A stretch of 63,393 nt of DNA, counting the filler, from Lenisia limosa (lineage: Eukaryota; Protista; Breviatea): the NCBI GenBank assembly GCA_001655205.1. It is 12 parts of 12 records of this genome, joined end to end, with 100 filler letters (N's around TTAATTAATTAA, not from the genome) between each part and the next. Parts side by side here need not be neighbours in the genome. Positions count along the whole stretch, not along the records: positions 16,225 to 27,159 come from LPNZ01006841.1; positions 27,260 to 29,361 come from LPNZ01005383.1; positions 29,462 to 35,766 come from LPNZ01004071.1; positions 35,867 to 38,087 come from LPNZ01011452.1; positions 38,188 to 39,256 come from LPNZ01002819.1; positions 39,357 to 46,962 come from LPNZ01009536.1; positions 47,063 to 49,228 come from LPNZ01005238.1; positions 49,329 to 60,878 come from LPNZ01010110.1; 4 more parts are not named here. One strand, given 5' to 3'. Made by a program: the position numbers and the translations under genes. Of the stretch, positions 17,901 to 60,200 are shown in pieces (within the stretch, counting starts at the first letter, position 1; the number at the start of each line of letters is the position of its first letter). A model generated the notes under the pieces. It saw only the letters and a list, made by a program, of their open reading frames with translations, ran no database searches and had not been told where the DNA came from.

Positions 17901-20900
17901 GGGGGGTCAGGTCTTTGAGGAATGAATAACTATCACAAAAAAGATGAATTTACAACTCCATTAAAAAGAAAGCTAACAACCCCTCCAGATTCGTGTTAAA
18001 TGCCGGGATGCTGAAACGAAATTGACAACTATCCGCTCCTCCTCCGCCGCCGCGGACCTTGAGCTCCGCAACCAGGTAGGTCATCGGTGCTGTCTTTGTA
18101 GCATTTTTGATCCCCAGTTCACCCCCTCCCCCCTTCAGCACGAAAAGGATCTGCTGGATCTTAAAACGAAACATGCTGCGGAGGTCCAGGCACTAAATGT
18201 GAAAATAGACTGGTTCAGAGACAATGACAAGATTGTGACCAAGGTTGGACATTCACTCATTACTGTGCTATTGGGATACCTTGGGATTAACACACCATCT
18301 CTCTCTTTAGGACTCATTGGGAAAGAGCTAACCGCATAAACAATTGAACATGGGACCTCACCCTTTTCTTTAGAATGAAACCGCAATTACCGACCTTCAA
18401 GCTACTATAGCCCAGCAGCATGAAAGATTAGTGGCGGCAGGTATGCAGAGATAGAGGGGGGTGGGGATGCTTGGAGACTACTATTAATATCCCATGTATT
18501 TTGATTGTGGTTTTTTGTGGATATTTTTTTTATAAATATCATATGTATTTTTTTTGTTGTTCTCTCTCAACTTAGTGTGATGAACCAACACCATCATTAG
18601 TATGATATGACTTGCTCTTAGACTCATTTACATGTATCTTAAAAAACATTTCTATCCAAAAGTGATAATTATTCCCCCTTGTTCTGTATTCTTACCCAAT
18701 CACACAATTCAGGCTTGGAGTCAGGCAAACCATCCATGACAGCTCTCCAGGCAAACGATGCCGTCAAAAAGGCCCAAAACCTGGTAGGCTGTCTATGAAG
18801 TCGACGGAATCTGAAAAGGCCACCGCTGTTCACCTTAATCTATATATTCCCTAACCCCCCGAAGGCGGCCAAGGAGTCACGACGAGCCAAACAACTTGAG
18901 CAGAACGTTGCCGACCTTGAGGAGGCTCTTGCGTCGAAGAATCCAAATGCGCTCCCGCTGATGCTTCGAGCTAATAGGCCTTCTTTTGTTGGCGGCGGCG
19001 GGGGGGTTGTCATAGTCCTGTTTAATTTTTCTTTTCTACATGTTACTCTGTAGTCTGTATTCATGGCTCAGGAGGTGGGTATCAATGTCATGAGTTCTAA
19101 GTACTTTTGGTCCTCATAATCATCTCAGCCTTTAGCACCGCTTACCTCTCAGGATGACGACAGCAAGTCGGCCTACCTCAAGTCCCGAGTGGAGACTCTC
19201 GAGAATGAAGTCGCGACCGCGGATGACCGTCATGGCCTTGTGGGGAGGAAGTGTGATGTAGCTTTGTGAGGGATATTAAGTGTCGTGGAGGGGGATTGGG
19301 AGCAACGTCAAGGAAAATATATGCTTGCTTTGTGGCACCCCCCCCCCCCCNNNNNNNNNNNNNNNNNNNNNNNNNNNNNNNNNNNNNNNNNNNNNNNNNN
19401 NNNNNNNNNNNNNCCTTCGCGCTCTAAAGCAAGAACACGAGAAAGTTCGGGCGCAATACGAACTCAGGTTTGCTTTTTGGCTCTTCATCTTCTAATATCA
19501 ATAATATAGTTTTTCAATACTATTGTAGTTTTACAGCCCCTTCTGTGATCTCATTATTTCAGAATTAAGGACCTTCAGGCAGGCAAAAAGACCCCTACAC
19601 CACAGGTACTTTTTTCTTGTTAAAATGCCAAACAGTCTTGTTTCATATGATTTAAAGTCATCATATTTATTACCACCATTATTGCTCAATAATTAAGTTG
19701 CCATCCAAACTCATCCTACACCTACAACATAGTTTGTTAATTACCCTTTCATCACCATCGTAGGCGGTCACATTGAAGCGCCAGCTGGAGAGTACCAAGG
19801 TATGAGGGACATGTTACACCAGCCACATAACGTTACGTCATACCGCAGATTATCGTGGTGATGTATTATAGGATTCCTTTGTATCTTTCATTTCTTCACA
19901 TAAACTTACTAGTACAAAGTGTTTCGGTTCTTCCATGATCTACAGAAAATTCTAGATAAACATTTCTTAGGTTTCTCTCTTTAACATAACCACGTACTAA
20001 CTCTGCCAGTCACAATACGAACACAAACTCAACATCATGGAAGCAAGGCTTAGACAGTCTCAAAACTCCAACAACACCCAATCCACAACTTCAGGTTTGT
20101 CAACTGGTTTATCTGGTGTTACGTTTTTTATCATAATGTATATCATTACGTCTATGGAAAATGGTGAACTAATGAATTGAAATTTATGATTGTCCGTACA
20201 AAGATATTCCTTTTGGTGCGCTGGAATGATGGGATGTGGTGCAGAAGCGACTGGTCTGGGCTTTGTTTTGTTGTTACCAACCCTCGTGTGTTGTCAGCCA
20301 ACAGAGCTGATTTGGGCTTTTTTTTTGTTTCATAAATTTTCCAATTNNNNNNNNNNNNNNNNNNNNNNNNNNNNNNNNNNNNNNNNNNNNNNNNNNNNNN
20401 NNNNNNNNNNNNNNGGGGGTCATTTTGGTTTCAACTTCAGTCGCGTTTGGTTCGGATGCATCAACCAACTTCTTTTCCGTTCCCATTTCTACAATTTTGT
20501 GGTTACTTTGACGTTCATTTTGTTCTTACTCTACCCCAGCGTTGCTGAAAGAAGGGAATTGCACAGGTTGAGGCAAGACGTCCGTGACCTGAGTGCTCAA
20601 ATGTGGGGTACCGTGTCAATATCTGGCTTCCCTGCTACCCAATAAATGACTTAATTTCTCCTCGATAATTGTCGTTGTGTTGTCCTCATTGTATTCAAAT
20701 TGAGAATCCCCTGTTTGCTTTCATAAATGTTATCATGCCTTTCATTGCTCCTCTCTTCTCTTTTCTCACCATGCAGTCCTTCTGAGCTTTCTCCTAATCT
20801 TGATGGTGACGGTAAGCTGGAATTAACAATGATTTGAGCGTACAATTTGATGAACACTAGTACATTGAATAACATAACATTGAAATGATAAGCATCCCTC

Positions 20901-23900
20901 TTTCAGTATAAGAAATATTTGATACTTTCTTGGGATATTACTGGGTAGAACAAATAACATTGATGTTTACTCACCCCCTATAGATACAAGACGCCTTGTC
21001 TCGTCTCTTCAATTTGCTCTCCTGAGGGCGCAAGATGAGGTCAGCATCATCTCTTCACTCTAAGTAAATATGAACCAGATATTCGTGATAGGATTTTCTC
21101 ACTCTTAGTGTTATCAATTGGGGATTTTCAGTCAAAATGTCACTGATCGTATCAAAACCTCCATTCTCATCGTTTTTCTGCTTCGCTGATAGAGAAAATA
21201 CTTACATATGATGCGTATACTAGATGTTATATTAAGTTTTATGGTTGAAGTTGAAAGTCACATTTCAGACCACACGACTGAAGAAGACCAATGCCAGTCT
21301 GCAGTACGCCCTCTCGTTGATCACCCCTCCTGATGGTAGGTGTTTTTTGAAGCTTTTTTGTTTGTTTCTTCGTTAAGCATAGATTATTCAACTTGGGGTA
21401 AATTTAACCATGTGCATTTTGACATATTAGGCACATCGGCCGCTGCCACGCCGGCGACACCGTCCACACCCCACACCCCTCATATGCTTGCTAATATGTC
21501 GCCCACTCCTCCAAGCCCTGCAGTACCCGAACGAGCCGTTCAGAACCAAATAGACTCGTCTCAGGCCATTCAGGTGATATGGAGTGATATAGTCAAAATG
21601 ATTTCTTACATTTTGATATTTGAAGAATAGTTTTGAACTTCTTTTTTTTTTTTTTTTTNNNNNNNNNNNNNNNNNNNNNNNNNNNNNNNNNNNNNNNNNN
21701 NNNNNNNNNNNNNNNNNNNNNNNNNCGGTTCAATATCCTATTTTAACGTTATGGAGGACATTTTAGCAAGAGAAAGTCTTATTTTGATTTACCATTTCTT
21801 TATATGTAAATCACCTCGCCATCTCAAGTCACCTTCACAGGAGCTGCAAAAGCGTCATCTTGAGGAGATCTCAGAAAAGGAGAAAACCATTGCTAAGCTC
21901 AAAAAGTGGGTGATGGGCTTGAAGATGTTTTCAATATTATGCAAGGGGGTTCTCCCCCCCCCCCCACCTAAAAACCATGACTTCTCCCATTTATTATGAA
22001 TTGTGATGGTTTGACAGTATTAAATCCCTTTTCATTTGAGATATAAAGACCATGCTTGTGCCTTTTTCTCACACCACACAGGGAGAAGGCGTCTCTTCGT
22101 GAGGAATTGGAGCGAGTTGAGCAACTTGCCGCTAATATGCAGAGGGAGCTCGACCAAACTAACGCGACGCCAGTNNNNNNNNNNNNNNNNNNNNNNNNNN
22201 NNNNNNNNNNNNNNNNNNNNNNNNNNNNNNNNNNNNNNNNNNNNNNNNNNNNNNNNNNNNNNNNNNNNNNNNNNNNNNNNNNNNNNNNNNNNNNNNNNNN
22301 NNNNNNNNNNNNNNNNNNTGGTGAGAAAGTTCCTATCACGAAATAATCAAAATACCAAAGCAAAAACCAAAAAAACAAAAGCGCTTATGAGACATGAGTA
22401 CCCAACGTTGAAAATAACTTGTGAAGAGATGGGATATGTAATTCTTGAACGAATTGGAGTCACGGGGAGGTCATATCACACAAAATTTGCATCATACCCA
22501 CCAGTACAATAGAAAACACCAATGAAATATCCCTATTTTATTATCTCCATCTTAACCTCGCAGATGGCTTCAAAACTTCGCCAGCTTGTCAACAGGGTGT
22601 CCGAAATGGAAGACCTCCACCGCAAACGCNNNNNNNNNNNNNNNNNNNNNNNNNNNNNNNNNNNNNNNNNNNNNNNNNNNNNNNNNNNNNNNNNNNNNNN
22701 NNNNNNNNNNNNNNNNNNNNNNNNNNNNNNNNNNNNNNNNNNNNNNNNNNNNNNNNNNNNNNNNNNNNNNNNNNNNNNNNNNNNNNNNNNNNNNNNNNNN
22801 NNTTTTTGACATAATATCAATAATGACTACAACAATAATACACACAACCTCCTCAGCGTTTGTGTTTCCTTTGTGACCCCCTCTATTTTTGTTAAAAAAA
22901 ATTTTTGTTGTTTTTTAATGATTATTTTTTCTGATATTTGTTGTCTGTTTGTTGCTTTTTTTATTATTTTTATTGCCATCACCCCCCCCCCCAGGAGCTA
23001 GTGGCTTCAGCCCAGTCCGATGCAGCGTTGGATGTCGCCTCTTTGAAACTCCGGCACCAAAGAATGATCGATGTGAGGGGGAGGAGCATGGAGGATGGAA
23101 ATATACAGCAAATTTTTGACATACTAGTATTCTCAGAAATTTCCTCCTTTTGGGGTTACAAGCTTCTTTGTTTTCTATTTGTTATTTTGAGGGGCTTCAC
23201 TTCGGTTCGAAATAAGACTGAATTTCTCGATAAATCCTCGAAAACTATCGATATTTTACCGGTATTTTTCGAACCGAAGTGAAGCCCTAGTTAATAGTGC
23301 GAATTCTTGAATTGAAACCGAGGGTATCAATTCGCGTACTGATTCTCAAATTCTCTAATGATATTGAAACGATGACCCCCAAGGCCAAAGACCAGGAGCT
23401 AAGGGAGGCCTTGCAGCATTTTGAAGAGCTCAAGCAACAGGTAGGTTACGTTGGCTGCTTTCTACTCATTCTTAAGAATCAAGATTATTAATAGTGAGAG
23501 GCTTCCCACTCCCATCTCATCCTCCATCATCACGATGCATTTCATCACCCTTATTTCTCTTCCTTGTTATAAATTTCCATCACTTCTTTAGCTCCAGCAG
23601 CCAGCACCAGTAGCTCTACCTCTCCCAGCCCAGGTACTATTGGGGATACTAATCAATTTCTCGAGGTTGAAATAAGAACATACAAATTGGAATATGTCTT
23701 TTGTATTCTTTTTATTATGATCTTTCAACTGGTTCAATGTTTTAGTTGTTCCATAATTCCATACTGACTCCCTCCCCCCCAGTTGCCGCAGACTCCGCCT
23801 CATCGGAGCCCTCCCCCCGCCAATCTTACTCCAAGCCGGGCTGCCAAACTAATTGCTGATGCTGCACATGATGGTTGGGAGGGGGGTGTGAAGGTCATTG

Positions 23901-24087: not shown

Positions 24088-24321
24088 ATTCAAGCTCCAA
24101 TCATCTGATTATGATACTCGAATATTTCAAATAGTATAGCATATGCATATGATGATTTATTGTTTTCTGATAAAGACATTGTTGCTTTGCCTTTTTCTAA
24201 TTGACTAGGTCCCCCTAAAATGTTGTACCATGGTGTAAATTAGGTTGTTTCTTGTACTATTTGTGATTGTATATTTATTTGAAGCATTAAACAGATGACG
24301 AATCTATTCGAACTAAGCAGG

Positions 24322-28600: not shown

Positions 28601-29519
28601 TAACAAAACAAATTGAGATTTCTTCTGGCATAATTTACTGCTTACTATGAAGAAAATATCACATTTTGCGTCAATTTGTGAACTAGAAATCACACAATCA
28701 GGGTACATCTCAAAACCGTCACAGTTTTTTAAAACCGGGAGCATATATCATAGAGAAAAAATGCCATATGGTCCACGAGAGGATATGGCTGAGTGATTTT
28801 TTTAAAAAAAATTGATTATGCCTCGTTCGTAACTTTGAACATCCGAAAATAATCAATTTTAAAAAATCACAACCATCTACGATGTGTGACGAGTAGATCT
28901 GAGCAACTAAACCACAAGGGGAATGATTGGAAACGTCGGTTATTCGGTACGTCTTTAACATTTCAAGGTTATCCGTTCTGTTAATATTGGAGTTCATTCA
29001 AAAAACTATGTACATATATATGTTGTGCCGTTTAGTAAAACTGAATAAAACAAAAACAAAAATCTTGAAATTCAAATTTATCGGAGTTCATATAGTTCAA
29101 AAAGCTCAAGTTTATGCTGCTCACGCTCCTAAACTCCGTTTTTTTTATTTTTTTTGGTGATTTCTTTCATTGTTGTATGCCATAATTTCCCTTTTCATAA
29201 CAAAAAATAGAACAACAAAAGAAGTTTGGAAAAGAAATTTATTTATCATACTTTATATATAAAAAACAGCAAAATCATATACTAACACACAAACTGAAAT
29301 ACAAGCTACACCGTCAGCGTCATCGTGCAAGCTTCTTGAGCCGACTTGCCTTCAATTTCGTNNNNNNNNNNNNNNNNNNNNNNNNNNNNNNNNNNNNNNN
29401 NNNNNTTAATTAATTAANNNNNNNNNNNNNNNNNNNNNNNNNNNNNNNNNNNNNNNNNNNNATTAGATTATAGTATAGTAGTCATTCACGCAATCATTTG
29501 CCTTACCACACACCCAAAC

Positions 29520-31432
29520 CTTAGTAGCAAGAGATTCATCCACGCCCTCGCCTCCCGCTGTATTGAGCGCTATCGAGACCACTGCCGGGATCCAGGACTG
29601 GGGGGAGGGGGGAGTAAAATTGGACAATTTATGAAACAAAAAAAAGCCAAAATCATCTTTGTAAAGTGAGAGCAATATGAGTGGTGCAGTGTTCAACCTT
29701 ATCGAGACCGGGGGCTATTTGGAAATCAGTCTTTTTTAAAACCACAGTGAAGCCCTAGGTACATACAATATACATGTAACCTCACCTAACATTACGGATA
29801 AAACATAAGTAACCCTTCTTATTGTAACCGCGACAAATCCTGATACGATTTACTAAAGTCAAAGCTCAATGCCCGTGTCAGGACTTATCGTATCAATGTA
29901 CAGTGACTAGGACAAGTCTTAACCGATTTGCTGTGTGATTGTCAAGAAAAATCGGTCAAGACTTATCCTGGTCACTGTATATACGTACATGGAAAAACAC
30001 CTCCCCTTCAAATATGGTTATACAAATAAACCCCCAACATGAGGGATGAGAGCGACGGAAGTGAGGCGGTGTAGTATGGAAAGTCCCAAAAGAGGAAGGC
30101 GATTGTTGGGAGCTTCGCACGCGGTGCGGGATACGGCAACGAGAGGGGCGATCTTGGGATCTATAACAGATAAGCGAATACATATAATTATCGTTATGTA
30201 GTATATTTATACAACCTTGTTTTATTTGTCACCTGTGTCTTGAATAATAAGTATATAATAAACGAGAGGGGCGATCTTGGGATCTTTAACAAATAATTTA
30301 CACTCGGAGAGTAGTAATATATTACATAAGGGGGGCGATCTTTGGATCTCATTGGGGCCATTTGACAGATGTTCAACGAAGCTTCGTCATTCAGTCTTTC
30401 AATGTGATACCAAAAAATACGAAAATTTGTACCGTATATGATATATACAATTGTTCTCGGACCCCATCCCCTCTATATAGTAACATTATGTATATATTTG
30501 AAGTTGCCTTCTGACCTACCCTACCTAGCCAAAAAAGCGTAATATATATATATCTATCGATATATACATATATATATGACGATGACCCTTGTCAGTGTAG
30601 AGTATACTATATTGTGTGTATACAGTGACCGGGGAAAAATCTACCTATTTCCCCTGTGAAATCACAGAGCAAATCGGTCAAGACCTATCCTGGAAACTGT
30701 AGATCACTACCTCATGACACAAACCTTCATGGTTTTGGAGGGAATGCAGCAAATCACCAACTGCTCCGTCGGCTTGCTGGGGGGGGGGGTAAAATTGGAA
30801 ATTATTGACACCTGAATTTCTCAAAAAATCCTTGAAAACTATCAATATTTTAACGGTATTTTTCGAACGGAAGTGAAGCCCAGGAAGTGTTTGGAGGTTT
30901 GAAGCTTTATTCTAACAAAAAAAAATAAGGTTTCTATTGAGCGGTTTGTAACACAGGAGCTCTGTTTGAAATACCTCTTTAATCTGTTTGAAATCTTTAT
31001 AATCTGTTTTAAATACCTTTTTAATCTGGGGTTGTCTCTTAGCAGCTTGCGAAATGAGGGTCAAATCATCGACGATCGCCCGTAAAGTGGCATTATTCTG
31101 GAGGAGGGTGGGTCAAAAGGGGAAACAGGGGGTTAGAATTAGTGGAGGATATTCTATTTGAGAAGGTAAATATATCAGATAAGCGGGTTAGAAAAATTGG
31201 CACATTTATGAAGCTAAAAAAAAAGCCCAAAAATCAACTCTATTGCCAAGCAACACATGAAGGTTTTTAAATATCCTGTCCAAGATGGACATTAAATGAA
31301 ATAATCATATATCTGCTGAGAATTTAACCATGCTCTAGATCAAGCAACGATATCATATAAAAATGAGGGAGTGGGGAGGGTGTTCATCAATTAATGCCTG
31401 GCAAATTATTAAAGGCTTACCTGAGATGCCAT
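29520..31432 (-). CDS. MON2: MON2-like (DCB domain) N-terminal exons; remainder lost in gap at 29362-29461
   Basis: MASQ|..ATLRAIVDDLTLISQAAKRQP|QADGAVGDLLHSLQNHE|DPKIAPLVAVSRTACEAPNNRLPLLGLSILHRLTSVALIPH|SWIPAVVSIALNTAGGEGVDESLATK matches the MON2 N-terminal pattern (DLRALS.E.K...ACE..N.KL...GLS.LQ.L...DES...K). Confidence 0.8.
29598..29690 (-). mobile_element. Family A 3' part supplying the acceptor (MON2)
   Basis: Minus strand ttttggctttttttgtttcataaattgtccaattttactcccccctccccccag|TCCTGG. Confidence 0.7.
29901..29977. mobile_element. Tc1/mariner-type MITE (77 bp, TA-flanked, TIR CAGTGACCAGGATAAGTCTTGACCGATTT)
   Basis: TA|cagtgactaggacaagtcttaaccgattt...aaatcggtcaagacttatcctggtcactg|TA. 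The CAGTG start and TA duplication are typical of Tc1/mariner. Confidence 0.8.
30623..30699. mobile_element. Second, more diverged copy of the 77-bp Tc1/mariner-type MITE
   Basis: TA|cagtgaccgggg...aaatcggtcaagacctatcctggaaactg|TA. Confidence 0.7.
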
Positions 31433-31805
31433 ATTTGCCACCATCGTGGGGTGGGAGCTAGGGAGACCTCATATCTTGATCAACGAGTAGAATTGTTACG
31501 TCAAAGTTATCTGTGGGTCCAAATGGCCTAAAAACTCGCCAATTAAATTGTTTACTCAAAAATAAAACTGTTTAGCAGGGGAGAAGTAAAGAGGAAGAGG
31601 AAAGAGAAAAAATTGATTACAGGCAAAAGTGAGTAATTTCTCTGTTATTTTAACGAGAATATTCTCTTTTTTAGCATCCGCTTCTTTTATTCCCACCATT
31701 TCTACTTGTCATCTCCATAATCTTATATTTTGACAGTAATATCAATCAGAGGCAAAAATTGAAAGAATCGCTCAGGCTTCAAAACGCCTTACAGATCCCG
31801 TGATA

Positions 31806-34800
31806 ATGACGGTGGATCGCGAGGTGGGTGATGGGTAATCAGTCTTCTATCAGAGCAGTGTGACAGGAGTGTTAATATGTCCGCAATATAAGGGGGACAT
31901 TGTCGGCAACGTGATAAAACTCCCCCCCTTTTGTTCATTCTATTTCCATGAAGCCAATAATGACTCAGTACATTTTTTTTTTGAGGAATTTAATTGATAC
32001 CATCTGAAATTTATAAGCGTGAAATGTTGTTCCAATCAGGTTCGACCACCTACTATCGTAAATCTGCCAACATCAGTTTCATTATCATCCTTTTACTTTT
32101 ACTAAAACTTTTTCGGTTCCACGTTTTTAACCCGTTCTAATTACAATATTGATATGCCACGTACCTATATTACTATTGGGGTGAGGGATGTAGAAGTGTT
32201 TATAGTAAGACTTATTTTCTCAGATTATACACATAATATATATTTTTATTAATATGATGTGTAGAAGTGAGAAATAAGACAAGGTTGTATCTCAAAAAAT
32301 TGCTCTTTTACCATACAGGCGCCGTCACCGGCGGAGAGCTTTTCACAGCAGGAGAAAATGGATGGTGGGTGAGGGGAGTGGGGCCTCGCTTCGGTTCGGA
32401 AAATCACTAAAATATCAATATATTATCGAGAAATGCAGTCTTTTTTCGAACCAAAGAGAAGCCCTAATGGGGAGGCCCTTATTCATGCTATATTATGTGA
32501 CATAATTATATCTGAGTATTTCGGGTCTCAACAGAGTTATTTGGGCTTTGTGTTTGTTTCATTTTCCAATTTTACTCCCCGCAGAGCCCCATGACCTCGA
32601 CATCCTCATGGAGGGGCTGAGCTACACGTCTCCGCCACTTCCAAGTGAATATGCCTCACACTGCTCCCTCCAGTCTGTCCAGCTGTTTGTTAGGTAAGTG
32701 GTTGGTATATACTTAGGGCTTCACTTTGGTTCGAAAATAGACTGAATTTCTCGATAAATCCTCGAAAATTATCCATATTTTACCCGTCTATTTCGAACCT
32801 AAATGAAGCCCAATCATATGTATACACTTCATGTAGTATATCGATGAATGGAGATACAAACAAGCTGTTTGTTAGGTTGTGTTTGATATAATTCATATTA
32901 CTCTGACCTCCCCCCCCCTCCACTCTATATTATTCATCTTAATTTCCTTCATTTTACCCCTACCCTAGACATGGAGCGCGAGTACCTATCAACATTCAAG
33001 ACTTCATTACCGGGCAAGCTATGGGGCTCGGCCAGAAGTACCGCTGCAGCCCACTATACTCGAAAATTAACCCACCAAATAGTACGTTATGATGGGATGT
33101 GGACTGGCCTGGGCTTTGTTTGGAGTGATGGATATGGAGCTACAGAAGTTACTGGCCTGGGTTTTTATTTTGTTCGTGTCTTAAACCCTAGTTTAAGATG
33201 GGTTCGAAAATAACCTGAAGACAAAAGCAAATGGAGTTGCTTCTGAGTTTTTTGTTTCCTATATTTTCTCACTTTTAGTCCCCCAAGTATTACGCTTTTT
33301 AAGATAAGGTAGATACTAACATATAAAAAAAGAGAAATAATACTCATTAGAAATCTAGGGAAACAAATTACCATGCTTCCGTTTTTGAGTATTTATTGAG
33401 AAATTCAGGCTTTTTTGAACCGAAGTGAAGCCCTATTAATTACCCATGCTTTGGGCTTCAGACCCTGAAAAAGCTCTCGATGATTAATCGAGAAAGATAT
33501 TCCTTTTCTGGAGCGAAATGAAGCCCTATTAATAAATCGTAGTTCCCCCATGTTAATTACATTCAGAGGCAGACTCTTCGCCGTCGCCGATTCTCGGGGT
33601 GTGTCAACTTGGCCANNNNNNNNNNTTAATAATTGTTTATCATCTTCCTATATTATGGGTTCCTGTTAGGGCTTTACTTCGGTACGAAAAAGACCGGTTA
33701 ACTATTGGCTTATATCGAGGATTAATCGAGAAATTCAGTCTTTTTTCGAACCGAAGTGAAACACTAGTTCCTATCTTATAATGAAATAATAATTTAATTG
33801 AGAACTATCCGTATTCAGGCTTTTTATTTCGTAAATTTTCCAATTTTACTCCCCCCCCCCCCCCNNNNNNNNNNNNNNNNNNNNNNNNNNNNNNNNNNNN
33901 NNNNNNNNNNNNNNNNNNNNNNNNNNNNNNNNNNNNNNNNNNNNNNNNNNNNNNNNNNNNNNNNNNNNNNNGTTCTTATTTGATTACTTAGGGAGATCAT
34001 TTTAAGGAGGTTCACCATAGCTAGTGTCTCACTCTGTAGCTGACAAAAGGAGGAGAGCTTCAGGCTTATTTAGCGGGTAAACTACTGAGAAAGAGCTATG
34101 CAGGTTTGTGGTGATATCACACTGTTATCTAATAATATCTTACATAAGCGTGATGTCAACAAACTTATTTGGTTTTAATATGTGATACTCCTGTAACTAC
34201 CTATTATTTCTACTCTAACTAACGTTATTTTACATGATGATTTGAATATAGTTGACTGATTGAGTCAGTAATATATCATATCGTATACATGCATGCATGA
34301 TGACATAAATTTCTATTTGTTTTTTTGTTTTTTTTTGTGATAGTGTACGACACCCAGTCTTAATCTATTTTGGGGATTCAATATATAATCTGAGGATACA
34401 AATCAACAAAATTTGGGTTCCAATAAATATATGGGGATATGAATGACCATTCTGATTACTGCAGAGTTTTTGGACCGGAAAGTGAAGAGCTCTTCTGACG
34501 TCTATTACAGAACCACTGAAATCCAACGAACCATTCTGGTAAGGTTTCAGCAATTTTTGTCATTCTAAACATATCATCTGGAATATGTTTTTTATTTTTA
34601 TTTTTAGACTGGGCATAAGATTTTACACGGTCTCTTTCCCAAAACTCCTCTGCAAAAATTCAAAAGAAATGCCAAGACGATTGAGGAAGAAAGTGGGTGG
34701 CTTCATGAACTGTAATAAAGTGAACTGAAATGATTTAAACTAAACGGCTATATATCATATCCTATTTGAAACTGAGTTTGGTTATTATTTTGTTTATATT

Positions 34801-35575
34801 TTTCATTTTACCCCGATGGGATGTAGTTATCAACCCTCATGTGCTTTCAGCCAACAGAGTTGATTTGGTCTTTTTTGGTTTCATAAATTTTCCAATTTTA
34901 AATATAGGTGTATATATATGTATGTATATATGTATGTATATATCTATATATCTATATACATGTATAGTATATGTATATTTAGTAATATGTTAACTCACAT
35001 TAACTGATATGAAATGATTTTTATTTCTGATATGTTGAATACATTTTCTGAAATTTACCAAGTTTTACCCTGGTGGTTCTTAGTTACCTTTAACTGGATA
35101 ACAGTTTTTACAGGGTGTTGTTACTTCCCGCAATAGATATGAATTATACTGATATGAGCTGAACCGATATTAGCTGAACCTATATGAACTGAACTGAAAC
35201 TGAACTGATTTTCCTCCGCATAGACATGTTCCCACGACGGACGGCTTGCAGGCGTTTTGCCTACGAAATGGCAGCCTTTACCAAGCTCCGACTATTTGCT
35301 GATAAGATTGCTGAAAGGTGGGGGCGGGGGTGGCAAGGACATCAGTTTCTGAATGGACGAGTGTCCCTCCTCCCATCCTCCCTTGGATTTTTGGGAATGG
35401 TGTATTGTTGNNNNNNNNNNNNNNNNNNNNNNNNNNNNNNNNNNNNNNNNNNNNNNNNNNNNNNNNNNNNNNNNNNNNNNNNNNNNNNNNNNNNNNNNNN
35501 NNNNNNNNNNNNNNNNNNNNNNNNNNNNNNNNNNTCCCAGAAAGCCCATGATTGATCAGGTGATCGAAGAAAGAC
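31806..35575 (+). CDS. Histidine acid phosphatase (branch 2; ACP2/ACP6/PXYLP1-like), 3' truncated by gap
   Basis: Catalytic motif CSLQSVQLFV|RHGARVP, then QLTKGGELQAYLAGKLLRKSY and VYYRTTEIQRTIL|TGHKILHGLFP. Start position uncertain. Confidence 0.85.
32520..32584 (+). mobile_element. Family A 3' part supplying the acceptor (acid phosphatase)
   Basis: caacagagttatttgggctttgtgtttgtttcattttccaattttactccccgcag|AGCCCC. Confidence 0.7.
32715..32811. mobile_element. MITE family B copy
   Basis: agggcttcactttggttcg...cgaacctaaatgaagccc. Confidence 0.85.
34815..34900 (+). mobile_element. Family A copy inside an acid phosphatase intron
   Basis: caaccctcatgtgctttcagccaacagagttgatttggtctttttttggtttcataaattttccaatttt; not at the acceptor. 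Confidence 0.7.
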
Positions 35576-35865
35576 AGAAATTTGGTTAGTTGGGGAAGAA
35601 GGTGTTTCAAAAGAAGTTTCTATTTGACAATGTTTGTTATACCCTTTAATCCCTTTTCTACCTCCACCCTCCAACCCTCACTCCTGCAGACCCCCTTTTT
35701 TTAACCCTTGAGTTTCCCAAAATCTGAGTGTGAGAGTCGAACCTTAGTTTTTTATTCTTCCATTTTNNNNNNNNNNNNNNNNNNNNNNNNNNNNNNNNNN
35801 NNNNNNNNNNTTAATTAATTAANNNNNNNNNNNNNNNNNNNNNNNNNNNNNNNNNNNNNNNNNNN

Positions 35866-36985: not shown

Positions 36986-36995
36986 NNNNNNNNNN

Positions 36996-37828: not shown

Positions 37829-37860
<32 letters not shown>

Positions 37861-37900
37861 CATTATATACGATTAAACATATTAACCATAAAACATAATC

Positions 37901-37935
<35 letters not shown>

Positions 37936-42476: not shown

Positions 42477-42726
42477 ATTACCGGCAGAAAGAAAAGGAAT
42501 TAGAAATTTCAAATCAAACGTTAAATAAAACTGGGTGACTGGATCAATATTGTAAATTCCGTGAATTGATTCCTTTTATTCCATTTATCTCCAAATGCAT
42601 GTTCTTTTCTTGCACATGACCCTTTCTCATCTGAAATATTGTTAGTAGTAGTTAAAAAGTTAAAAAAAATATATCATAGATTTGAACTGACGTCTACCTC
42701 TCCTCACCCTTCCGTGCTCAGCAAAT

Positions 42727-49228: not shown

Positions 49229-49328
49229 NNNNNNNNNNNNNNNNNNNNNNNNNNNNNNNNNNNNNNNNNNNNTTAATTAATTAANNNNNNNNNNNNNNNN
49301 NNNNNNNNNNNNNNNNNNNNNNNNNNNN

Positions 49329-52300
49329 CCGAGATCGGCCATAGTAGAGGCCTGGGGGGAGGGTAAGTGACACGAGGGGATTGTGCGATAACAGTTCCAG
49401 AGAGACTGATATAGGGTGGGTGTGCGTGTACACTTTCCGAAACAAACAAAACCCCCACAATCAACCCTGAGAGGGAAGGGGGGTGACGAAGGGAGGAAAC
49501 ATGAGGATGTAAACAAAACAAGAAGGGGATGTGGATTAACAGACTTTCGAGTCGAAATGATGAACAAAGATAACACGAGACGGTTCATCGAGTGTATCAG
49601 AGTATCATTGAGACTTATCGGTCAATATTCACACGAGTGGATATGAAGTATCATATCACAGACAATGAAAGTTCCCAATCATTTCTATTGGCAATACCTT
49701 GAAGTCCCTGGTGGAGGTGGTAGGAGGGCTTCGAGGGGCAGGTACAGAGGTTCTGGAGCGTGAGAGAATAGTGGGGCAATTAATTGAACAATTAATTTTG
49801 AATTGTGAAGCTGGGCATATTTTGATGAGAACTCCTTTTCAGACACTTTATTTTCAATTGATGGCTGGAGAAATACAACGGTGCTCTCTGGCCGAAGCCA
49901 TCAACCCCATCATGCTTTTAATAGATATAAGATGATAGTCAAATATTACACCCAATTATTTGCCTAACAACCCTCGATAAGTATTAAGGTTGCGGTCCAT
50001 CAAAAGTTTGAAGAAAATGATTACTAAAAATCGACATGAACATGTCTGAAATGGAGTTCATATTACACAATGTATAGGGCTTCCCAACGGTTCGAAACAA
50101 GACCGTATATCGATACATTTCGAGGATTTATCTAGAAATACAGTCTTTTTTAGAACGTAGAAAGCACTGTTAACTTCACAATTCAAAATAGATTTATCTT
50201 CAGTCTTCACATTGTTCAAAAAAAAAGACTGAATTTCTCGATATAATCTCGATACTATCGATTTTATTGGTCTTTTTCGACCGAAGTGAAGTTTCTACTA
50301 CCCATACAAAATACTCAAGGCATGTTTACCAATTACATGGGACTAAAACGAAGTCCTCGCCTCACACCTGTTGATTTGGGAGCTGATGTTGTTGACCGAG
50401 CGTATCACAAGGTTTCTGATCAACTGGTACTGCTTGGATCCCTGAATGGTAAGTTGTAGATGGCACCCCCAGGGTTTTCCTATTGTCCGATAAAGCCCGG
50501 TGAAATATCGATATTTATCAAAGATTTATTGAGACATTCGAAGGGAAGTCCAATTGGAACTGAAATATGACGTCATTATTATTACGGAATTAGAAAAAAA
50601 GATGTCTTGGGATGTAGTAATGATATTTTATACAATACCTATTATAGACAATGTGGGCATGAATGTTATTAAATGTCTTGTGGGATTCTGGGCAATCCTT
50701 TTATATGGCTGAATAAAAGCAAACCTTGAACTCTTCCAGACACTTCTCATCGAAAGACTCCACTCCCCATTTCTACGAAATTAAAAAAAGTTCATTTCAA
50801 TTTCATAACACCAAATGCTATTTGCCCATCATCTTTGAATTATGCAATCATGAAACCCATGGTCAAAAATATATTAGCAAATGACTAGAACAGCGTTCAA
50901 CCCCTTATCGCTCACCTTTCCAATCATGGCCACATCAAGGCTCTTGACGGCCTTGTTGACGCCGGACATCACCACGGTGCAGTTGGTGGCCTGTACAATG
51001 ATTGGGAAAAGGAAGATCATGATAAGTAGGGCTTCCTTTCGGTTTTATAAAAAATGTTGGCAAAACGTCGATATTTATTGACAATTATCAAGATCGGTCT
51101 ATATTGGTATCGGGGAAGTCCTAATTAATTGGCAGTTTAGTGTATTAATTGAGCTCATTTTAAGTCTGGCTTCACTTCTGTTTTTGAAAAGACTGAATCT
51201 CTCGATACATTTTCGATAAATATCTATTTAATTTAGTAGAATTCTATGAAAACCAGAAAGACTCCTCCCCCCCACAATTCCGTTTTGTACCAAGGCAATC
51301 GCAGATATTCCGACACAGGACTCAACATCCCCCCATCTTCTTGAGGCGTGAACATAGCCTGAATCATATTAAAGAGGAGGCGTGGGCGAAAATGAATCAG
51401 TGTTAGCCTTGACCTGATGAAGCATTGAAAAGGTTTGAAAATAACCTGAATTAATATCATTTTCATAGTTCAATTATGATGCACCGTTTAAATTAAGGTG
51501 TCATTAAAACCAATTTCCCAATTAATTCAATACAAATTGTGAAAACCTGTTTCATATCATATGATCGAAGCTGGTAAAAGAGTAAATTATTCAGACTTTT
51601 GACCGATATGACTCGAAGTCACTTTGAAATTCTAGTATTTTAGCGGTAAGATGCTCACCCAGAGCTTTCGAAGGCATTTTGAAGGTAAGAGTCGTTAGAA
51701 TTCCACCCATCTAAGCGATAAAAAGTAAAAGAATATCGTTTTAAGACCAAAGTTTCCCATTAAAAATACTTCCATTTCCAATTTATGAATTTTTCCATGG
51801 AATAGTGCTCTTACACATTGATACTGAAAAATAGCTATACATATTCAGTGTGTCACTTCTCATAGTATTATATGATATAAAATAGAGGGGGGGGGGGGNN
51901 NNNNNNNNNNNNNNNNNNNNNNNNNNNNNNNNNNNNNNNNNNNNNNNNNNNNNNNNNNNNNNNNNNNNNNNNNNNNNNNNNNNNNNNNNNNNNNNNNNNN
52001 NNNNNNNNNNNNNNNNNNNNNNNNNNNNNNNNNNNNNNNNNNNNNNNNNNNNNNNNNNNNNNNNNNNNNNNNNNNNNNNNNNNNNNNNNNNNNNNNNNNN
52101 NNNNNNNNNNNNNNNNNNNNNNNNNNNNNNNNNNNNNNNNNNNNNNNNNNNNNNNNNNNNNNNNNNNNNNNNNNNNNNNNNNNNNNNNNNNNNCATACCT
52201 GGGGGCTATCGACACACTGAATCAAGTCGTTCAGCATGGTGAGGTACTAAAACGGGTGAGGCAAGGTGTTATATAAAACAAGGGAGTATCAACTGGCCTT

Positions 52301-55300
52301 GGGAAAGAGAAATAAAACAAAGGGGGTCTGGCCGCCAGTATAGTTTACTATAATATGTAGTGGCCGCTATGGGTCCTGATACAGATACTGAGCTTCTTTT
52401 GTCAATCGTGTCAGGACTTACCTTGTTTTATTTTTCATCTCTATATAATGTATTAACTGGCACAGAGGCACTCGTTATCATAGTGCATGCGGGAGATATT
52501 TGATATTTAAAGACTTTGTCAGAGCATAATTCCAATGGAATATTTATGATCAACAAATAATCATTTCAGCTAGCAACATCCATCCCCCAACTTTGTGCGG
52601 GTTGTCCAGGGTTCCGATAAAGTCTGAAATTCTGAAGGAGTTAAAAAAAGGACATGGTGAAAAACTGACAACATAATACAAAAAAAGAACAAGAAGAACA
52701 AGAAAAGAAGAGGGAGCAGGAGAAGGAGAAGAACAGTAACAAAAAAGCAAGTTCCAGCTGCCACCCACTGTTTGAGGCTGGCATTAGCAGGGATAGTGAA
52801 CTGGTCGTTGGAAACTGCCAAAGACCCCATGTCAACCGTGGAGACATCAATAAAGATCTGGAAATGGTCAATATCATCTATGGTAATATGCCTATGTAAT
52901 TTTATTTTGCATCTCTTGATGTTAGTTTCAATATTTTCTTGTTTTTTGGAAAAGATGACTGGATAAAATGCATGGCTAACGGTTTGGTCCCCGTAACTGA
53001 TAGGGTAATTATATTAAAGAGCCTCAACAATACCTTAGGAGGGAGGGCGCTCTTCCTGACCTCCGGACCAAGCTGGGTGTTTCCACTTACAATACAGAAG
53101 CCCTGTCGGGGGTCAGAGTGTGATATGATATGATACGATATGCATAGTATAGTATATATTAAAATCATATAATATATAGCAATAAGAAATAAAAAGCAAG
53201 GATGTATCTGGCCAAAGTCCACATCACCACGCTTATAAGAGTTATTGAATAATATAGTATTAATTCATCATAGCATTTGCCTTAAAGCTTTGTAAACACA
53301 GCTTTCTGTGTGTCTCACCAGTTTATATTGTATTAATCTACTATGTCTCATGTTTCATAATACAGGAGTCTGATATTGAATACAATCCATTAAATGTGAT
53401 CAGAAGAATGCCCCCACCCTAATCTATATAGGGACGCGGAAGGAAATCCAAGCACTCACCTTGGTGTTAGAACAGGCACTTTGGGCGTCCTCAAGGGTTG
53501 CCGGGTGGATCCACAAAACATCCCCGTCGCCGCCGTAGATGCGGGATCTGATCGGTTAGTAAATGAACTGAACTGAACTGAATCAATTGAACTGAGAATG
53601 AAGAATGTTGAAGAAAAAAAAGTTGCCAGTGTGGTTACTCATAAATGAACTTAATTGAACTATCTGGCCGAAGTCGTCCACACACCAAGAAAGAGTTGAT
53701 AAAAAAAACAACACAAGGTACTAACTATCTGGCTGAAGCCATGTACACCATCATGTTTGTGAGGGGTAAGCTGGAGCACAAATGGCGAGGGCATCAAAAT
53801 CATCACAAAAAGTGAAAAACATTAGGCATCGTGGGGAGTAAAACTGGACAATTTAAGAAACAAACACAATAAACTCTGTTTTAATAAACAAAACAAATAA
53901 AGCCCAGGCCAGTCGCTTTTGCAGCATCCCAAGCGTACGTGGGGGTGAGGTCCTTCAGGAAGCTGGGAAATTCAACCTGGAAAGCATGAGAATTAGAACC
54001 TGTATGAAAGAACTTGATTCGCCTCATCCCCTACCTCCTTAGCCACGCTTAAACAAGGATTTGAATCAGCCACTTCAACTTCAGCAGTACACCGACATCC
54101 GCTTTCTTTCTTACACTGCCAAGATGATTGCACATTATAGTACGTGGTGATTTGGACGGCTTTGATCAATATTGAAACTCACTTCCAAATATTACCCTTT
54201 TAAATAATTAAAAAGTGTGTAGTATAAAATGTCTATGATAATTAAAAAAAAAACAACACTGACAATGACTATATAGAATTAAGAAACACAACGGAATCTG
54301 ATCGAAGCCACATTGTGCTTCACTTTGGTTCGAAAAAAGACTGAATTTCTCGATAAATCCTCCATAACTATCGATATTTTACCAGTCTTTTTCGCACCGA
54401 AGTGAAGCCCTACACATTTCAACAATTTCTAGTCTTCAAAACCGAAAATGTAGAAGCCCAAGAAACTTGAAAAAAAAAAAAAAAAAAANNNNNNNNNNNN
54501 NNNNNNNNNNNNNNNNNNNNNNNNNNNNNNNNNNNNNNNNNNNNNNNNNNNNNNNNNNNCTATCGATGTGTTCCTTGTCTCTTCGGGACCGAAGTGAAAC
54601 CGTAGTAACACACCAGCAAAATCAACAAAACAGCCTTATCACTTTAGCTTCACTTTGGCACGAACAGACCGGTATTTTATCGACAGTTTTCGGGGATTTA
54701 TCGTGGCGAAGTGAAGCAGTACTTTTCTCACCTGGGTTTTAGGGTGGTGTGCAACTGACTTGGCAGCATCCAAAATGGGCCGGTAGCCAGTACAGCGACA
54801 AATGTTACCTGGGAGGGGGGGTAAAATGAGAAAATTATTGAAACAAAGAAAGGCCCAAAATCAACTCTGTTGGCTGACTACACACGAGGTCTCCCCCACA
54901 CAACACAATAACAACAATAAAGCCCCACCATGTAGCGCATCTTCCATCTCCTTCGGGTCCTCAACACCCGACGCCACGGCGGCGTAAGTAGACATCACCA
55001 TACCCGGCGTGCAGTAGCCGCACTGCGTACCGTAGGAATCGGCTATACGCTCCTGGGAGGGTATAAAGAAAGAAAAAAACAATCAGGAAAAAGTCAAACA
55101 TAACTTTGATTGTGGTTATATGGCCCAATAACACCCCTCCATTCTACCCCCTCTCCAACCTGAATGGGATGTAAGCCCGTGCGGGTTGAGCCAAGGCCCT
55201 CAACAGTGATAATCGACTTTCCGTGAATTGATGTGAGAGGCGTGAGGCACGAGTTGATTGCGTGGGTTCTGAGGATATAAACGGAAATTTGTAACACAAA

Positions 55301-56414
55301 ACAAAACCCAGGACTGTACATTATTAGGATAAAATGTATAATATGATACCAAAATACTATATGATATGATATGTNNNNNNNNNNNNNNNNNNNNNNNNNN
55401 NNNNNNNNNNNNNNNNNNNNNNNNNNNNNNNNNNNNNNNNNNNNNNNNNNNNNNNNNNNNNNNNNNNNNNNNNNNNCCCTGGCCACACGAGCGCTTGGTA
55501 CCGTATAGGCGGACCTCATCGTGAATGAAGTTGTACAGGGACAGCGTAGTGGGTGGGGCCTTCAAGGTGTGCTGCGGGGGTGAAAATGGACAATAGAAAC
55601 AAAACAAAAAACCCAAAATCCTGTTGGCTTAACACACGGGTTGAAAACAAATTTTAGACAAGCCCATTTTTTTTGCAACAAAACTGACCCGTAGTATTAG
55701 GGCTTCCCTACAGTCCTAAAAAGACCAGTAAAATATCAATATTTATCAAGGATTTATCGAGAAATTTTGTCTTTTTGGGACTGTAGGAAAGCCCTAATTA
55801 TCAATGACTATTAAATGCGTTTCCTACAAGAAAGTTTTGCGGAGTTGTAAGGCAAAAGATAAGTTGAAAGAGGGTCATCAAATATCCTTTATTAATGGGA
55901 TGAGGTGGACTGCTTCAGCCTGTATCACTTTCATTTCCCATGCTTGCAAATGGTGACCCATATCCACTAGTGATATGATCCTATGACCGACTTTCAAGTC
56001 AAAATGATGAACGAAGATAACACAACGGTTCATCCCGAGTGTATCAGAGTATCATTGAGACTTGTCGGTCAATTATCATACGAGTGGATATGAGGTATCA
56101 TATTACTGCGTGGATAATGATTGTCCATAAGTGTGAAGAAGACCAAAAAAGTGATATGATGTGTCAGATGACACTAGTTACGGACAATCTATTGGAAGAC
56201 ATTCTACATGTTGTTGGGACCCTAAGCACTCTGAATCTACTTATCCTTATCAGATTCCTAATACTGCTTAACACACCAACACACCTTCTTCCCATTGAGA
56301 CTGAAGATCAGAGACGTGTCCCAATCTTGAAAACTGACAGCCTAAGGAGGGGGTGACAGGGCACTGATCAAGGCGGAGTATTGGGACTTATCATTAATCC
56401 CAGCTTACCTTCAT
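49329..56414 (-). CDS. Xanthine dehydrogenase/aldehyde oxidase family: 2x[2Fe-2S] and FAD domains; molybdopterin domain absent (gap)
   Basis: MK|...[10 protein letters not shown]|HTLK...[32 protein letters not shown]...HPIQ|[22 protein letters not shown]|[47 protein letters not shown]. Confidence 0.9.
53830..53938 (-). mobile_element. Introner-like repeat family A copy (XDH intron, starts at donor)
   Basis: Minus strand gtacgcttgggatgctgcaaaagcgactggcctgggcttt...aacagagttt...ttgtccagttttactcccc. Confidence 0.65.
54317..54411. mobile_element. MITE family B copy (two further partial copies to ~54720)
   Basis: gcttcactttggttcg...gcaccgaagtgaagccct. Confidence 0.85.
54809..54928 (-). mobile_element. 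Introner-like repeat family A, copy forming an entire 120-bp intron
   Basis: GTGGGGCTTTATTG...CCTCGTGTGTAGTCAGCCAACAGAGTTGATTTTGGGCC...TTTACCCCCCTCCCAG splits the codon G in [14 protein letters not shown]. Confidence 0.8.
55572..55650 (-). mobile_element. Family A 3' part supplying the acceptor (XDH)
   Basis: Minus strand caacccgtgtgttaagccaacaggattttgggtttttg...tgtccattttcacccccgcag|CACACC. Confidence 0.65.
55699..55795. mobile_element. MITE family B, CCTAC subfamily copy
   Basis: agggcttccctacagtcc...ggactgtaggaaagccct. Confidence 0.85.
55970..56106. mobile_element. MITE-like family D (TIR ~GTGATATGATAC); other copies ~48958-49050 (reverse) and ~49540-49662
   Basis: Shared core ggttcatcccgagtgtatcagagtatcattgagacttgtcggtcaattatcatacgagtggatatgaggtatcata in three places; ends gtgatatgat.../...gtatcatat(c/t)ac are inverted. 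Confidence 0.65.
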
Positions 56415-57236
56415 AATGACGGGAGGAAGAGGCTCAGAAGACCAGGGAAAAGAAGATGAACTTTAAGCCACTATGATATGATAGTTCTACCCCGATCAAT
56501 TATCAAGCTACACTAATTTAACGTCAAAAGCAGACCGCGCAAAAAGGATTTTCCAGCAAACATTGCAGCAAAAACGACCAGGCTAAATACCGAAATAAAT
56601 CGATATAAAATTACAATTTTCACCTTTCAAGCCTTTTTGACTGCTTGCATCTATCAAATAGCTCATTGATCTGAATTATTCCAGTTGGTTCGAAAAGCAA
56701 GGGAAGCAGAAACCCATTTTTGTCAGGTTACTTGCTCCACTCCAGAGCTCCAGGTTAGTTGGTTTGAACGACTAAAACAATAATATTGATTAATTGCAGT
56801 GAAATCTGAAAAGTGACTGGAGTATGATTGAGACCATTCATTACCTTTTCTGGTCGTATTTTTGTGGTTATTCTGGATTTAAGCAACCCATTTGTGTTAT
56901 TTGCAGCGTGTTTTCTATGATTTTTCAACCCCCCCTAGAAATACGTTTGTTTTATAACGCATGATTCCATCATGTTTATCCATTTCAACTCCATGATTCC
57001 CATTTTATCAGTCGCTCACTTCAAATTATCAATTATTTTTAATAGACAAATAAAAACCAATCGCTCCCTTAATATGGCACTAAGGAGCTGGGCAGCCCCG
57101 AGGGTTGGTAATTATGCTTATGGGTGCTCCGATATATATCTCACTGTTTACTGTATTATTATGGTGCTCCGACTTATATCAAGCTTATGTATGCATCCTT
57201 TCGTATCCCTAGATTGTATTTCATGAATTATCCAGG

Positions 57237-60200
57237 ATGGGAGAGCAGGCACCAGACCAGTCAGGGGCCACCTCGAAGTCCCAAATCAAGAAGGAGTTGG
57301 CCAAACAAAGGAAGGCCGCACTGGTATGATGTCCAATAAGACTGAATTTCTGGATAAATATCGATAAATATCGATATTTTACCTGTCGCAGAAAAAAGAG
57401 AAAGCCGAGGCCTTGAAGAGGCGTGAAGAGGAGGAAAGACTGAAACGACTTGAAGATCAAGAGAAGGTTGGGAATATATTGTTTTATTTCTATATTGGCA
57501 TACCCCAGCATTATTTTTATCGAAGTGCTCCTTTTGCCCCGGAAAAGACAGGTAAATATCGAGGGTTTTCGAGTTATCAATCTCTTTTGGACCAAAGTAT
57601 TGCATTAGTTACACTTCAGGTCAAGTCAGCCATGACCATCGAGTCCATGCCGGAGGGTGATGATGTCAAAAAGTTCGAAGTGGAGCATGTGACCAAGGTT
57701 TATGAGGTGAGAGTGGTTGTTTTATGTTATACTATTATATGATATACTAGACATTTAGTGTGTATGATTTATAGATCACTATATGATGTTAATATTTTGA
57801 TATATGTTGATAGAGTATTTAAAATATGAGATGTATGATATTCTCGTTTTTATTTTATTTATTTAATACATATTTTTATTTTTCGGGAACCAGCTTGCCG
57901 CATAATTTGCCAAGCTGTGTACACAGAGTTGTAAAACAAATGATTGGGGGTGGGGGGGGGAATTATCCCTTATAAGCGTNNNNNNNNNNNNNNNNNNNNN
58001 NNNNNNNNNNNNNNNNNNNNNNNNNNNNNNNNNNNNNNNNNNNNNNNNNNNNNNNNNNNNNNNNNNNNNNNNNNNNNNNNNNNNNNNNNNNNNNNNNNNN
58101 NNNNNNNNNNNNNNNNNNNNNNNNNNNNNNNNNNNNNNTAACCGTGTTATTTCTCATTTGAACATATTACTGATGTATGACTGACCATTCAGGCAATTGC
58201 ACCGCATTTCAGCTCTACCAGGTATAAGGTTGGAGGGTTCAAGCTCTACCAGATATATGGCCTGCGCTTTGTTTATTTTGTTGTTCTCAACCCTCGTGTG
58301 TTACCAGCCAAAAGAGTTAATTTTGGGCTTTTTTGTTTCATAAATTTTCCAANNNNNNNNNNNNNNNNNNNNNNNNNNNNNNNNNNNNNNNNNNNNNNNN
58401 NNNNNNNNNNNNNNNNNNNNNNNNNNNNNNNNNNNNNNNNNNNNNNNNNNNNNNNNNNNNNNNNNNNNNNNNNNNNNNNNNNNNNNNNNNNNNNNNNNNN
58501 NNNNNNNNNNNNNNNNNNNNNNNNNNNNNNNNNNNNNNNNNNNNGGAAGTACCTCAATAGACGAAAAGACCTAGTAACCATTGGTAGTGACAGGTGGGTT
58601 ATTTCTCCTATTTCCCTCTTTCACCCTAAAACTCAGGTGAGAAAAGTACTTTGTTTTTGTGGGTGTGTGTAATCTGTTTTTTTTTCCTAGCCTATCGCAT
58701 GCTTTTTTTATATTTCGAAATATCCTTCGTTTATCCCCCCCCCCCCNNNNNNNNNNNNNNNNNNNNNNNNNNNNNNNNNNNNNNNNNNNNNNNNNNNNNN
58801 NNNNNNNNNNNNNNNNNNNNNNNNNNNNNNNNNNNNNNNNNNNNNNNNNNNNNNNNNNNNNNNNNNNNNNNNNNNNNNNNNNNNNNNNNNNNNCGGGGTT
58901 GTGAAGTTATGGAAGCGGACGGGATGAAACTGCCCCATAAGGAAGGTAGATTTGTAGGAGGGCTTTCCTTTTAAGGAAAGTAGTAGTTGATATTATTTCC
59001 TCATTTTTGATACTTGCCTTTTATTTTTCAGGATGGAGCAATCAGCATTGCAGTTATCCATCATTTTGCCAGTGAAGAGAGGCGGGTTGAAGCAGTACAG
59101 GTTAGTTCTCTGGGGGGGAGGGGGGCAACTTTTAACTGCTTTTATCTTTCGTACATTCCCCACCTTCCCTTGTCCTCCTTTTTATTAGAACATCGCGCAC
59201 TGCTGTCTTTGTTTACTCTTTGTCTCAAACAGTTTTTGAGTGTTTTTTTTTTTTCCTCTTGTTTTCTTTTCCCTTTCCAGTTTTTATTATCTTCTATTCT
59301 TCTGCCTGGCGGCACGAAAACTCATGCATTTTGTAGCGTTAATTGGTCACTTGTGATGATTGAGACATAATTGGCATCGTCACTCTGTATCAAGTGTTCT
59401 AACTTAAAACATAATTATCGTAGCATTACCAGCGATAACATGTTGCCCTGGCATCAAAACATTGCATTCCACACCTGTGGTTTTTTTTGAGTAAGATTCC
59501 CAAAGGCGTCAACTGAGAACAGATTTAGCTTGGCAATAAAAACAAAAATATAATGAAACTTACCGTTTATGGATCCCTGTTCCGGACTGGTCGAAAAATT
59601 ACATATATATTCCATCCTGTCCCACAATGGTACTGCAGACCCATCCATAGCACCATATTGGATCAGTCCATCATCTTCTCAATGTCGTGATAACTCATAG
59701 TCGGAGTGTTGGACAAACTTTCCTGAGGTCTTGCCACTACAACAGGAGTGTTGGTCTGGTTTTCCTGTCTCATGCATTTCTCACGAGACCCAAGTGGAGC
59801 TCCCATAATCAGTTTTTTGTAGACACTTCAACTCCTCTTTTTCATGCTAAACTTACCTGAGCACAAGAAGTACAGTATATTCTGATGATATCTAAAACAC
59901 CTGATACATTGTCTTTAGTATTTGTGTTAGTGAGGTGTATTCTTTGTACACATAGTATTTCTCTTAAAAATGTCTTTAGGGATTTGACGTTGTGCCGGAC
60001 AAATTGGGGGGGTCTGAGGGAACGCATGGTGTTGGTAACGACCTCTTTTTCCAGCCTTGCCCTGACCCTACCGGCTATCATGTGATCATGTGTGCCTTTA
60101 CCTTACGGACGTATGTATACGGTATTATGAGGATGGCGGGTTAGAAGTCAAGAGATAGAAGATGAAATGGAAGATGGGGATGGCGGATGAGGATGGCGGA

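Follow-up and report, generated by a model that had tools for sequence, protein, structure and literature searches.

Does a repeat that forms the ends of spliceosomal introns build those introns, or does it take over introns that already exist? This question is raised by a 63,393-nt stretch of DNA from the breviate Lenisia limosa (assembly GCA_001655205.1), hereafter the window, which consists of 12 parts joined with 100-N fillers, adjoining parts not necessarily being neighbours in the genome. An initial annotation of the window had described a repeat of 120-140 bp, with copies at 12 sites, as an Introner-like family that builds introns. We arrive at a different answer, to which we give about an even chance of being right: a non-coding, sense-only element of about 150 nt would remodel old introns rather than make new ones, likely by pairing of its tail and copying-in. 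At least one acceptor of an old intron has been taken over by the element, which has also replaced nearly the whole of one such intron.

The repeat was defined by an nhmmer profile made from eight copies. At a cut-off of E<0.02, the profile gave 14 matches in six genes of the window, and the best match in the reversed window, used as a control, reached only E=2.2. All 12 sites listed initially do carry the repeat; the profile adds 1098(+), 33225(+) and 49469(-), and an extra remnant at 34773 was recognised by eye. The order of the unit is GT, GATGGGATG, GACTGGCCTGGGCTTT, AACCCTCGTGTG, CAGCCAACAGAGTTGATT, a T-rich stretch, a C-run and AG. The size given by the initial annotation needs revision, as the full unit is about 150 nt long and the majority of copies are 3' pieces of 35-130 nt, the longest copy spanning 20216-20346. 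The copies are coterminal at the 3' end and vary in their 5' extent. Six cores are only 64-87% alike in pairwise identity, and the family is therefore aged. Comparing the ends of the copies revealed no terminal inverted repeat (TIR), four copies folded no better than shuffles (z 0.66 to 1.44), and no copy had an Rfam match at E<=1. An origin from spliced-leader RNA, small nuclear RNA or small nucleolar RNA found no support, since there was neither an Rfam family nor a stable fold.

Read evidence came from a single study, with one DNA-like run (X1), which may be the window's own source, and one polyA RNA run (X2). The family is clearly abundant genome-wide, albeit with no copy number claimed: the summed contig depth of the repeat core is about 130,000 against 32-40 for unique DNA (49329-60878), depth not being copy number. 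At least 105 DNA contigs differ at one core position, 58319, and 77 run on from 58352 into TTTTA and then a C-run. The core pattern was not found in the metagenome or viral contigs searched. At other loci, DNA contigs join the repeat's 3' end to ends of miniature inverted-repeat transposable elements (MITEs); this MITE family of about 100 bp, with terminal inverted repeats, has some 30 copies in the window in both orientations.

In five introns the acceptor coincides with the repeat's end, as shown by RNA for one and by reading frame for four, in line with the initial annotation. An RNA contig has an exon start at 55571, and the repeat's AG at 55573-55572 is therefore a used acceptor. Splicing to the acceptors at 29598, 30777, 32584 and 54809 leaves the frame open, with GT-AG ends, and the donors at 33082 and 53938, at both of which the repeat begins exactly, lie in open frames; for these six sites the evidence is that of the frame. 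A third donor start, at 58222 in the TRM9-like gene, did not hold, as the donor is more likely 58229 and the repeat begins about 26 nt downstream of it. Donors are unrelated among the five introns that end with the repeat. Half of all copies are interior to their introns, and six stop 25-324 nt short of the acceptor; since an RNA contig has its exon edge at 53547, the copy at 53830 does not end at the acceptor. Interior copies unused as acceptors also retain mainly the 3' part. The copies ending at 20346 and 58352 meet N gaps likely hiding an acceptor; for the former, we infer an exon in the gap because the flanking exons would otherwise be out of phase. Many assembly gaps start at C- or G-runs (14087, 15111, 19351, 33865 and 58747, for example), so that C-run acceptors and their adjoining exons are under-assembled.

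All 14 profile matches are sense to the host gene, with gene strands judged by eye and from open frames, which upholds the strand lock described initially. A profile without the T/C tail gave nine matches at E<0.01, all sense and mostly seeds, and no antisense copy, the sole further match under E=1 being 11604(+) at E=0.68. The MITEs in the same genes lie either way, as had also been noted, with 16 sense and 14 antisense in a tally made by hand on 30 of 36 rows (dropped were three opposite-strand duplicates, two without an assigned gene and one fragment). The sense bias of the repeat against that of the MITEs is thus 13:0 versus 16:14 (Fisher p=0.003). Tracts of a T-run plus a C-run outside the copies number 19 sense versus 3 antisense; given this bias, 13 sense copies out of 13 are reachable by targeting of such tracts (p=0.15).

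The age of the host introns could be assessed in XDH. The alignment of the exon at 55052-54929 with mammalian XDH begins at residue 103, and the exon corresponds to Pfam Fer2_2. Metagenome contigs were scanned for AG followed by the codons of a 12-residue motif, which yielded 95 loci, 41 of them uninterrupted, 30 whose retrieved DNA does not include the upstream exon and 24 whose DNA does. In all 24 loci with a visible upstream exon, the GT donor splits, in phase 1, the same glycine codon as in the window intron 54928-54809, and the upstream acceptor is also common to 22 of them. These loci, which form nine clusters with 47-60% identity to the window exon, all lack the repeat. For 55572, the acceptor is in phase 0 and 23 codons upstream of GTK..C in both loci compared (L033 and L043), as in the window. 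The introns 54809 and 55572 thus occupy two ancestral positions; they are old, or were gained twice at the same site, the latter unlikely for three neighbouring introns. Since both acceptor-ended introns compared lie at positions common to animal-type XDH, remodelling is likelier than creation. That the repeat builds these introns, as proposed initially, is contradicted in both cases by the very finding, ancestral host positions, that the initial annotation had named as refuting it, including the 120-nt intron 54809-54928, which does prove to be almost wholly repeat, as had been annotated. The G|GT at both of its junctions had been taken for a possible co-opted target duplication. It recurs in 11 of the 24 repeat-free orthologous introns and is therefore not a target duplication, just a glycine codon.

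In the remodelling that we favour, the T-run/C-run tail would pair with tracts of the same kind at host acceptors, the element being copied in from the tail end. Tail-primed copying, either retro-type or repair-templated, would run 3' to 5' and stop variably, leaving 5'-truncated copies, after which some or all of the older intron sequence upstream would disappear, or MITEs would insert into it. An excised intron RNA may have served as template, and the GT at the start of the longest copies would then be explained. In support of tail pairing, one copy sits right behind the C-run of an older copy, and C-rich exon ends precede both copies that begin at donors. More speculatively, and at a clearly lower level of belief, insertion of the element may have been directed to splice junctions in thousands of ancient introns, replacing 3' ends or whole introns, such that the positions would be ancestral but the sequence and the C-run acceptor rewritten by this one family.

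Several observations weigh against remodelling. The comparison loci are called animal-type by similarity to mammalian XDH; the scan pattern finds only intron-bearing genes and shows that a position exists elsewhere, not how often; and the positions compared are two, both in XDH. Plain C-runs number 50 sense versus 37 antisense, and targeting of such runs is insufficient as a source of the strand lock. A GTRCG start is common to three copies, in two cases exactly at the donor, as would be expected if an intron-shaped unit were inserted whole; the donor pair with this start fell below the 5' similarity threshold used. Intron 53938-53548 is off the animal-type site, where 19 of the 21 loci carry a GT four codons further upstream and one lacks the intron. 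It may therefore be a true gain, as may the intron at 33082; the 53938 site falls in a poorly conserved linker, where a shifted old intron is possible. Direct repeats flanking these two copies were scored against 985 donor-like and 114 C-run controls, in a test devised after the match had been seen. The duplication at 33082 outscores 982 of the donor-like and 112 of the C-run controls; that at 53938 is reached by 43 and 22 of them, respectively, in the same post hoc test. Finally, short imperfect duplicates of exon starts or ends in the neighbouring intron, at 30350-30138(-) and 58200-58265(+), suggest frequent local duplication across junctions, and the former occurs without the repeat.

Among the alternatives, an aged Introner of the type of the Micromonas introner element (IE) family IE-A, or of the fungal introner-like elements (ILEs), survives best, and we regard it as a tentative but serious candidate. 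Such an element would have spread whole by a splicing-coupled route into pre-mRNA, and most copies would have landed in or at the edges of old introns, deletions between C-runs later joining them to the old acceptor, and a minority would have made new introns (53938-53548 and 33082-33566 being the candidates). The GT...AG shape, the sense-only copies, the missing TIR and the unexceptional fold agree with this, as do the position of intron 53938 off the animal-type site and the two copies that begin exactly at donors, both after non-consensus exon ends. In Micromonas there are sense-only IEs and 463 IE-A-like remnants versus 6,112, lying outside or inside existing introns, with 32 in conserved introns, as well as merged IEs (PMC3879977). 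Those remnants, a small minority, have lost both splice sites (PMC3879977), whereas here the repeat supplies acceptors of old introns. Further against an aged Introner, interior copies that serve as no acceptor keep mainly the 3' part as well, and intron 53938, in its variable linker, could be a shifted old one.

The similarity of intron ends bears on the same point. For 10 of the 14 host introns both ends are defined, giving 45 pairs; at our own score threshold, none of these was similar at both ends or at the 5' end, and seven were similar at the 3' end. The repeat shares with Introners that it is a multi-copy family across introns of unrelated genes, in sense orientation, with an element end used in splicing. 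Similarity at both boundaries, new positions at 54809 and 55572, and a TIR or target-site duplication (TSD) of the DNA-transposon type were not found. The repeat is partly Introner-like in its working, yet lacks two defining Introner features where compared. From the initial view of a partly aged Introner without TIRs, we thus retain an aged, multi-copy, sense-locked and intron-shaped family that has no TIR, and give up the two defining features. A common homopolymer 3' end with variable 5' truncation is a retroposon feature, which later decay could mimic; as to another, a target-site duplication of variable length, one of the two copies scored lies above the controls; a tRNA, 5S or 7SL RNA head was not detected by Rfam at E<=1. 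MITE membership finds no match, with TIRs absent and a single orientation.

Distinctly improbable, in our view, is an ordinary non-autonomous repeat inserted at random, with antisense copies purged and deletions between C-runs bringing the repeat to the acceptor. Half of the copies do lie in intron interiors, the tail resembles the acceptor tract of the host genes, and the assembly breaks at C/G runs hint at unstable or hard-to-read runs. However, the genes tolerate MITEs of about the same size in either orientation, yet the window has no antisense copy of the repeat, and the exact starts at two donors are left unexplained. The same starts are not easily squared with the fallback offered by the initial annotation, an ordinary repeat kept in sense orientation for its pyrimidine tract. 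Least of all do we credit the strong form of the initial proposal, that these introns were built by the family, which would thus help to account for the high intron density: intron 54928-54809 is almost wholly repeat, but the introns 54809 and 55572 lie at shared positions, the most intron-dense gene (5332-13394; in a crude model about 38 introns, median 84 nt, with a C-run acceptor in 1 of 38) is free of the repeat, so that the family does not explain the density, and 14 host introns stand against some 130-150 in the window as estimated by eye.

Table. Repeat copies, associated exons and other repeat families in the window.
Feature	Position	Strand	Evidence or remark
Weak copy, acceptor 25 nt on	1098..1144	+	Profile, E=0.006
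Most complete copy, from 5' GT to just before the C-run	20216..20346	+	Meets N gap likely hiding C-run, AG and exon
3' part ending at acceptor, MON2-like gene	29598..29673	-	Profile, open frame
35-nt 3' remnant ending at acceptor, joined to MITE	30777..30811	-	Profile, open frame
Interior copy, acceptor 92 nt further on	31190..31269	-	Profile
3' part ending at acceptor, acid-phosphatase-like gene	32528..32584	+	Profile, open frame
Copy from donor, 5' half duplicated, plus MITE-like fragment; flanked by imperfect 15-nt direct repeat	33082..33286	+	
3' remnant with terminal C-run at N gap, about 175 nt before acceptor	33818..33864	+	Profile
Old 3' remnant, second copy directly after its C-run; intron interior	34773..34900	+	
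Weak interior copy, XDH intron	49426..49469	-	Profile, E=0.005
Copy from donor of XDH intron 53938-53548; 3' end not acceptor; position not common to animal-type loci	53831..53938	-	
120-nt XDH intron, almost all repeat; phase 1 in Gly of GNICRCTGY; ancestral position	54809..54928	-	
XDH exon, beginning at what is residue 103 in mammalian XDH; introns on both sides common to animal-type XDH	54929..55052	-	
3' repeat part ending at RNA-used acceptor of XDH intron 56284-55572; ancestral position	55572..55666	-	
57-nt XDH exon ending LNGKK; fits 56-nt hole in RNA contig	56285..56341	-	
TRM9-like intron copy after 24-nt imperfect duplicate of exon end; meets N gap	58255..58352	+	Profile
GGACGACTTCGGCCAGATAC family	62982-63050(+), 61001-61101(+), 53754-53656(-), 53233-53183(-), 49913-49869(-), 62382-62348(-)		
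MITE examples	23191-23289, 32714-32813, 54314-54412, 55698-55795		

Other repeats accompany the family. A second short repeat family with the core GGACGACTTCGGCCAGATAC has eight matches at E<0.001, seven sense and one antisense, one of them ending at an acceptor, and its start resembles the 5' part of the first repeat. A third repeat of high depth lies in XDH introns (55950-56090 and 49540-49650), and a gap-broken array of a 79-bp tandem repeat occupies 36992-38087.

The genes of the window appear to be of two types. The first (5332-13394) has short AT-rich introns, almost no C-run acceptors, no repeats and a sampled exon GC content of 0.45; the second (29462-35700 and 49330-56490) has longer, repeat-filled introns, C-run acceptors and an exon GC content of 0.55. 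The RPL12 gene at 41730-42480(-) has four short, repeat-free introns. Its exon found a best match of 88% identity, with named neighbours spanning plants, algae, fungi and animals and thus no close relative. A long, unusually GC-rich open frame at 35870-36735(+) is unlike the surrounding short-exon genes. Protein searches with single exons returned nothing for the XDH or the MON2-like exon, and Pfam named only two XDH exons among the 12 exons tried. The names MON2, acid phosphatase (from an RHG motif), TRM9 and SNW1 are those of the initial annotation together with familiar motifs, and we take them as presumptive. The exon boundaries that we presume for human MON2 seem to match three introns of the MON2-like gene in position and phase, and are not counted here. 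The XDH exon chain appears to stop at the linker gap 49229-49328, and the remainder of XDH seems to be missing or mis-joined; beyond the gap, on the same strand, follows what is presumably a SNW1-like gene.

Where introns of one genome resemble each other, the usual interpretation is recent intron gain. A repeat-made intron at a position shared with animal-type XDH suggests that resemblance within a family can instead reflect the turnover of an old intron, that is, if the replacement reading is true, intron replacement rather than intron gain. Should the same be true across the genome, constitutive splice signals can be rewritten by a mobile element, which may also have spread the unusual C-run acceptors of this genome; the family would also offer a tractable case for weighing reverse splicing against tail-primed copying, and would belong to a class that screens for Introners by both ends discard by design.

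Retroposons of the SINE/LINE type (short and long interspersed nuclear elements), which insert by target-primed copying, share a homopolymer 3' end and variable 5' truncation, and antisense Alu tails serve as splice acceptors. The repeat resembles them in its homopolymer 3' end, its 5' truncation and the use of its tail as an acceptor, and differs in having a C-tail rather than an A-tail, no Rfam match and unproven target duplications. Moreover, Alu tails make new exons, whereas the repeat replaces constitutive acceptors. Exact-wording searches of the main texts in a limited set of literature found no description of acceptor takeover by such a repeat.

Screens for Introners required similarity at both intron boundaries in order to exclude secondary insertions into existing introns (Gozashti et al. 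2022/2025; PMC9860276, PMC12130899), and on the copies of the window the present repeat would therefore be filtered out. It resembles Introners as a multi-copy intronic family, and some Introner families are likewise without TIRs and TSDs (PMC9860276, PMC12130899). The fungal ILEs also have no TIR or TSD, are genic and degenerate with age (PMC3879977, PMC9860276), but they have a conserved secondary structure and made new introns, whereas the repeat has no fold above that of shuffles. IE-A of Micromonas pusilla is sense-only, with GT..AG ends and novel positions (Verhelst et al. 2013; PMC3879977). It shares with the Lenisia repeat the sense-only copies, repeat introns running from GT to AG, partial copies in pre-existing introns and nested or merged copies. 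The Micromonas copies mostly made new introns, whereas the Lenisia copies compared supply acceptors of conserved introns, with no intron pair of the 45 matching from end to end. By this analogy, Micromonas IE-A is the closest known case.

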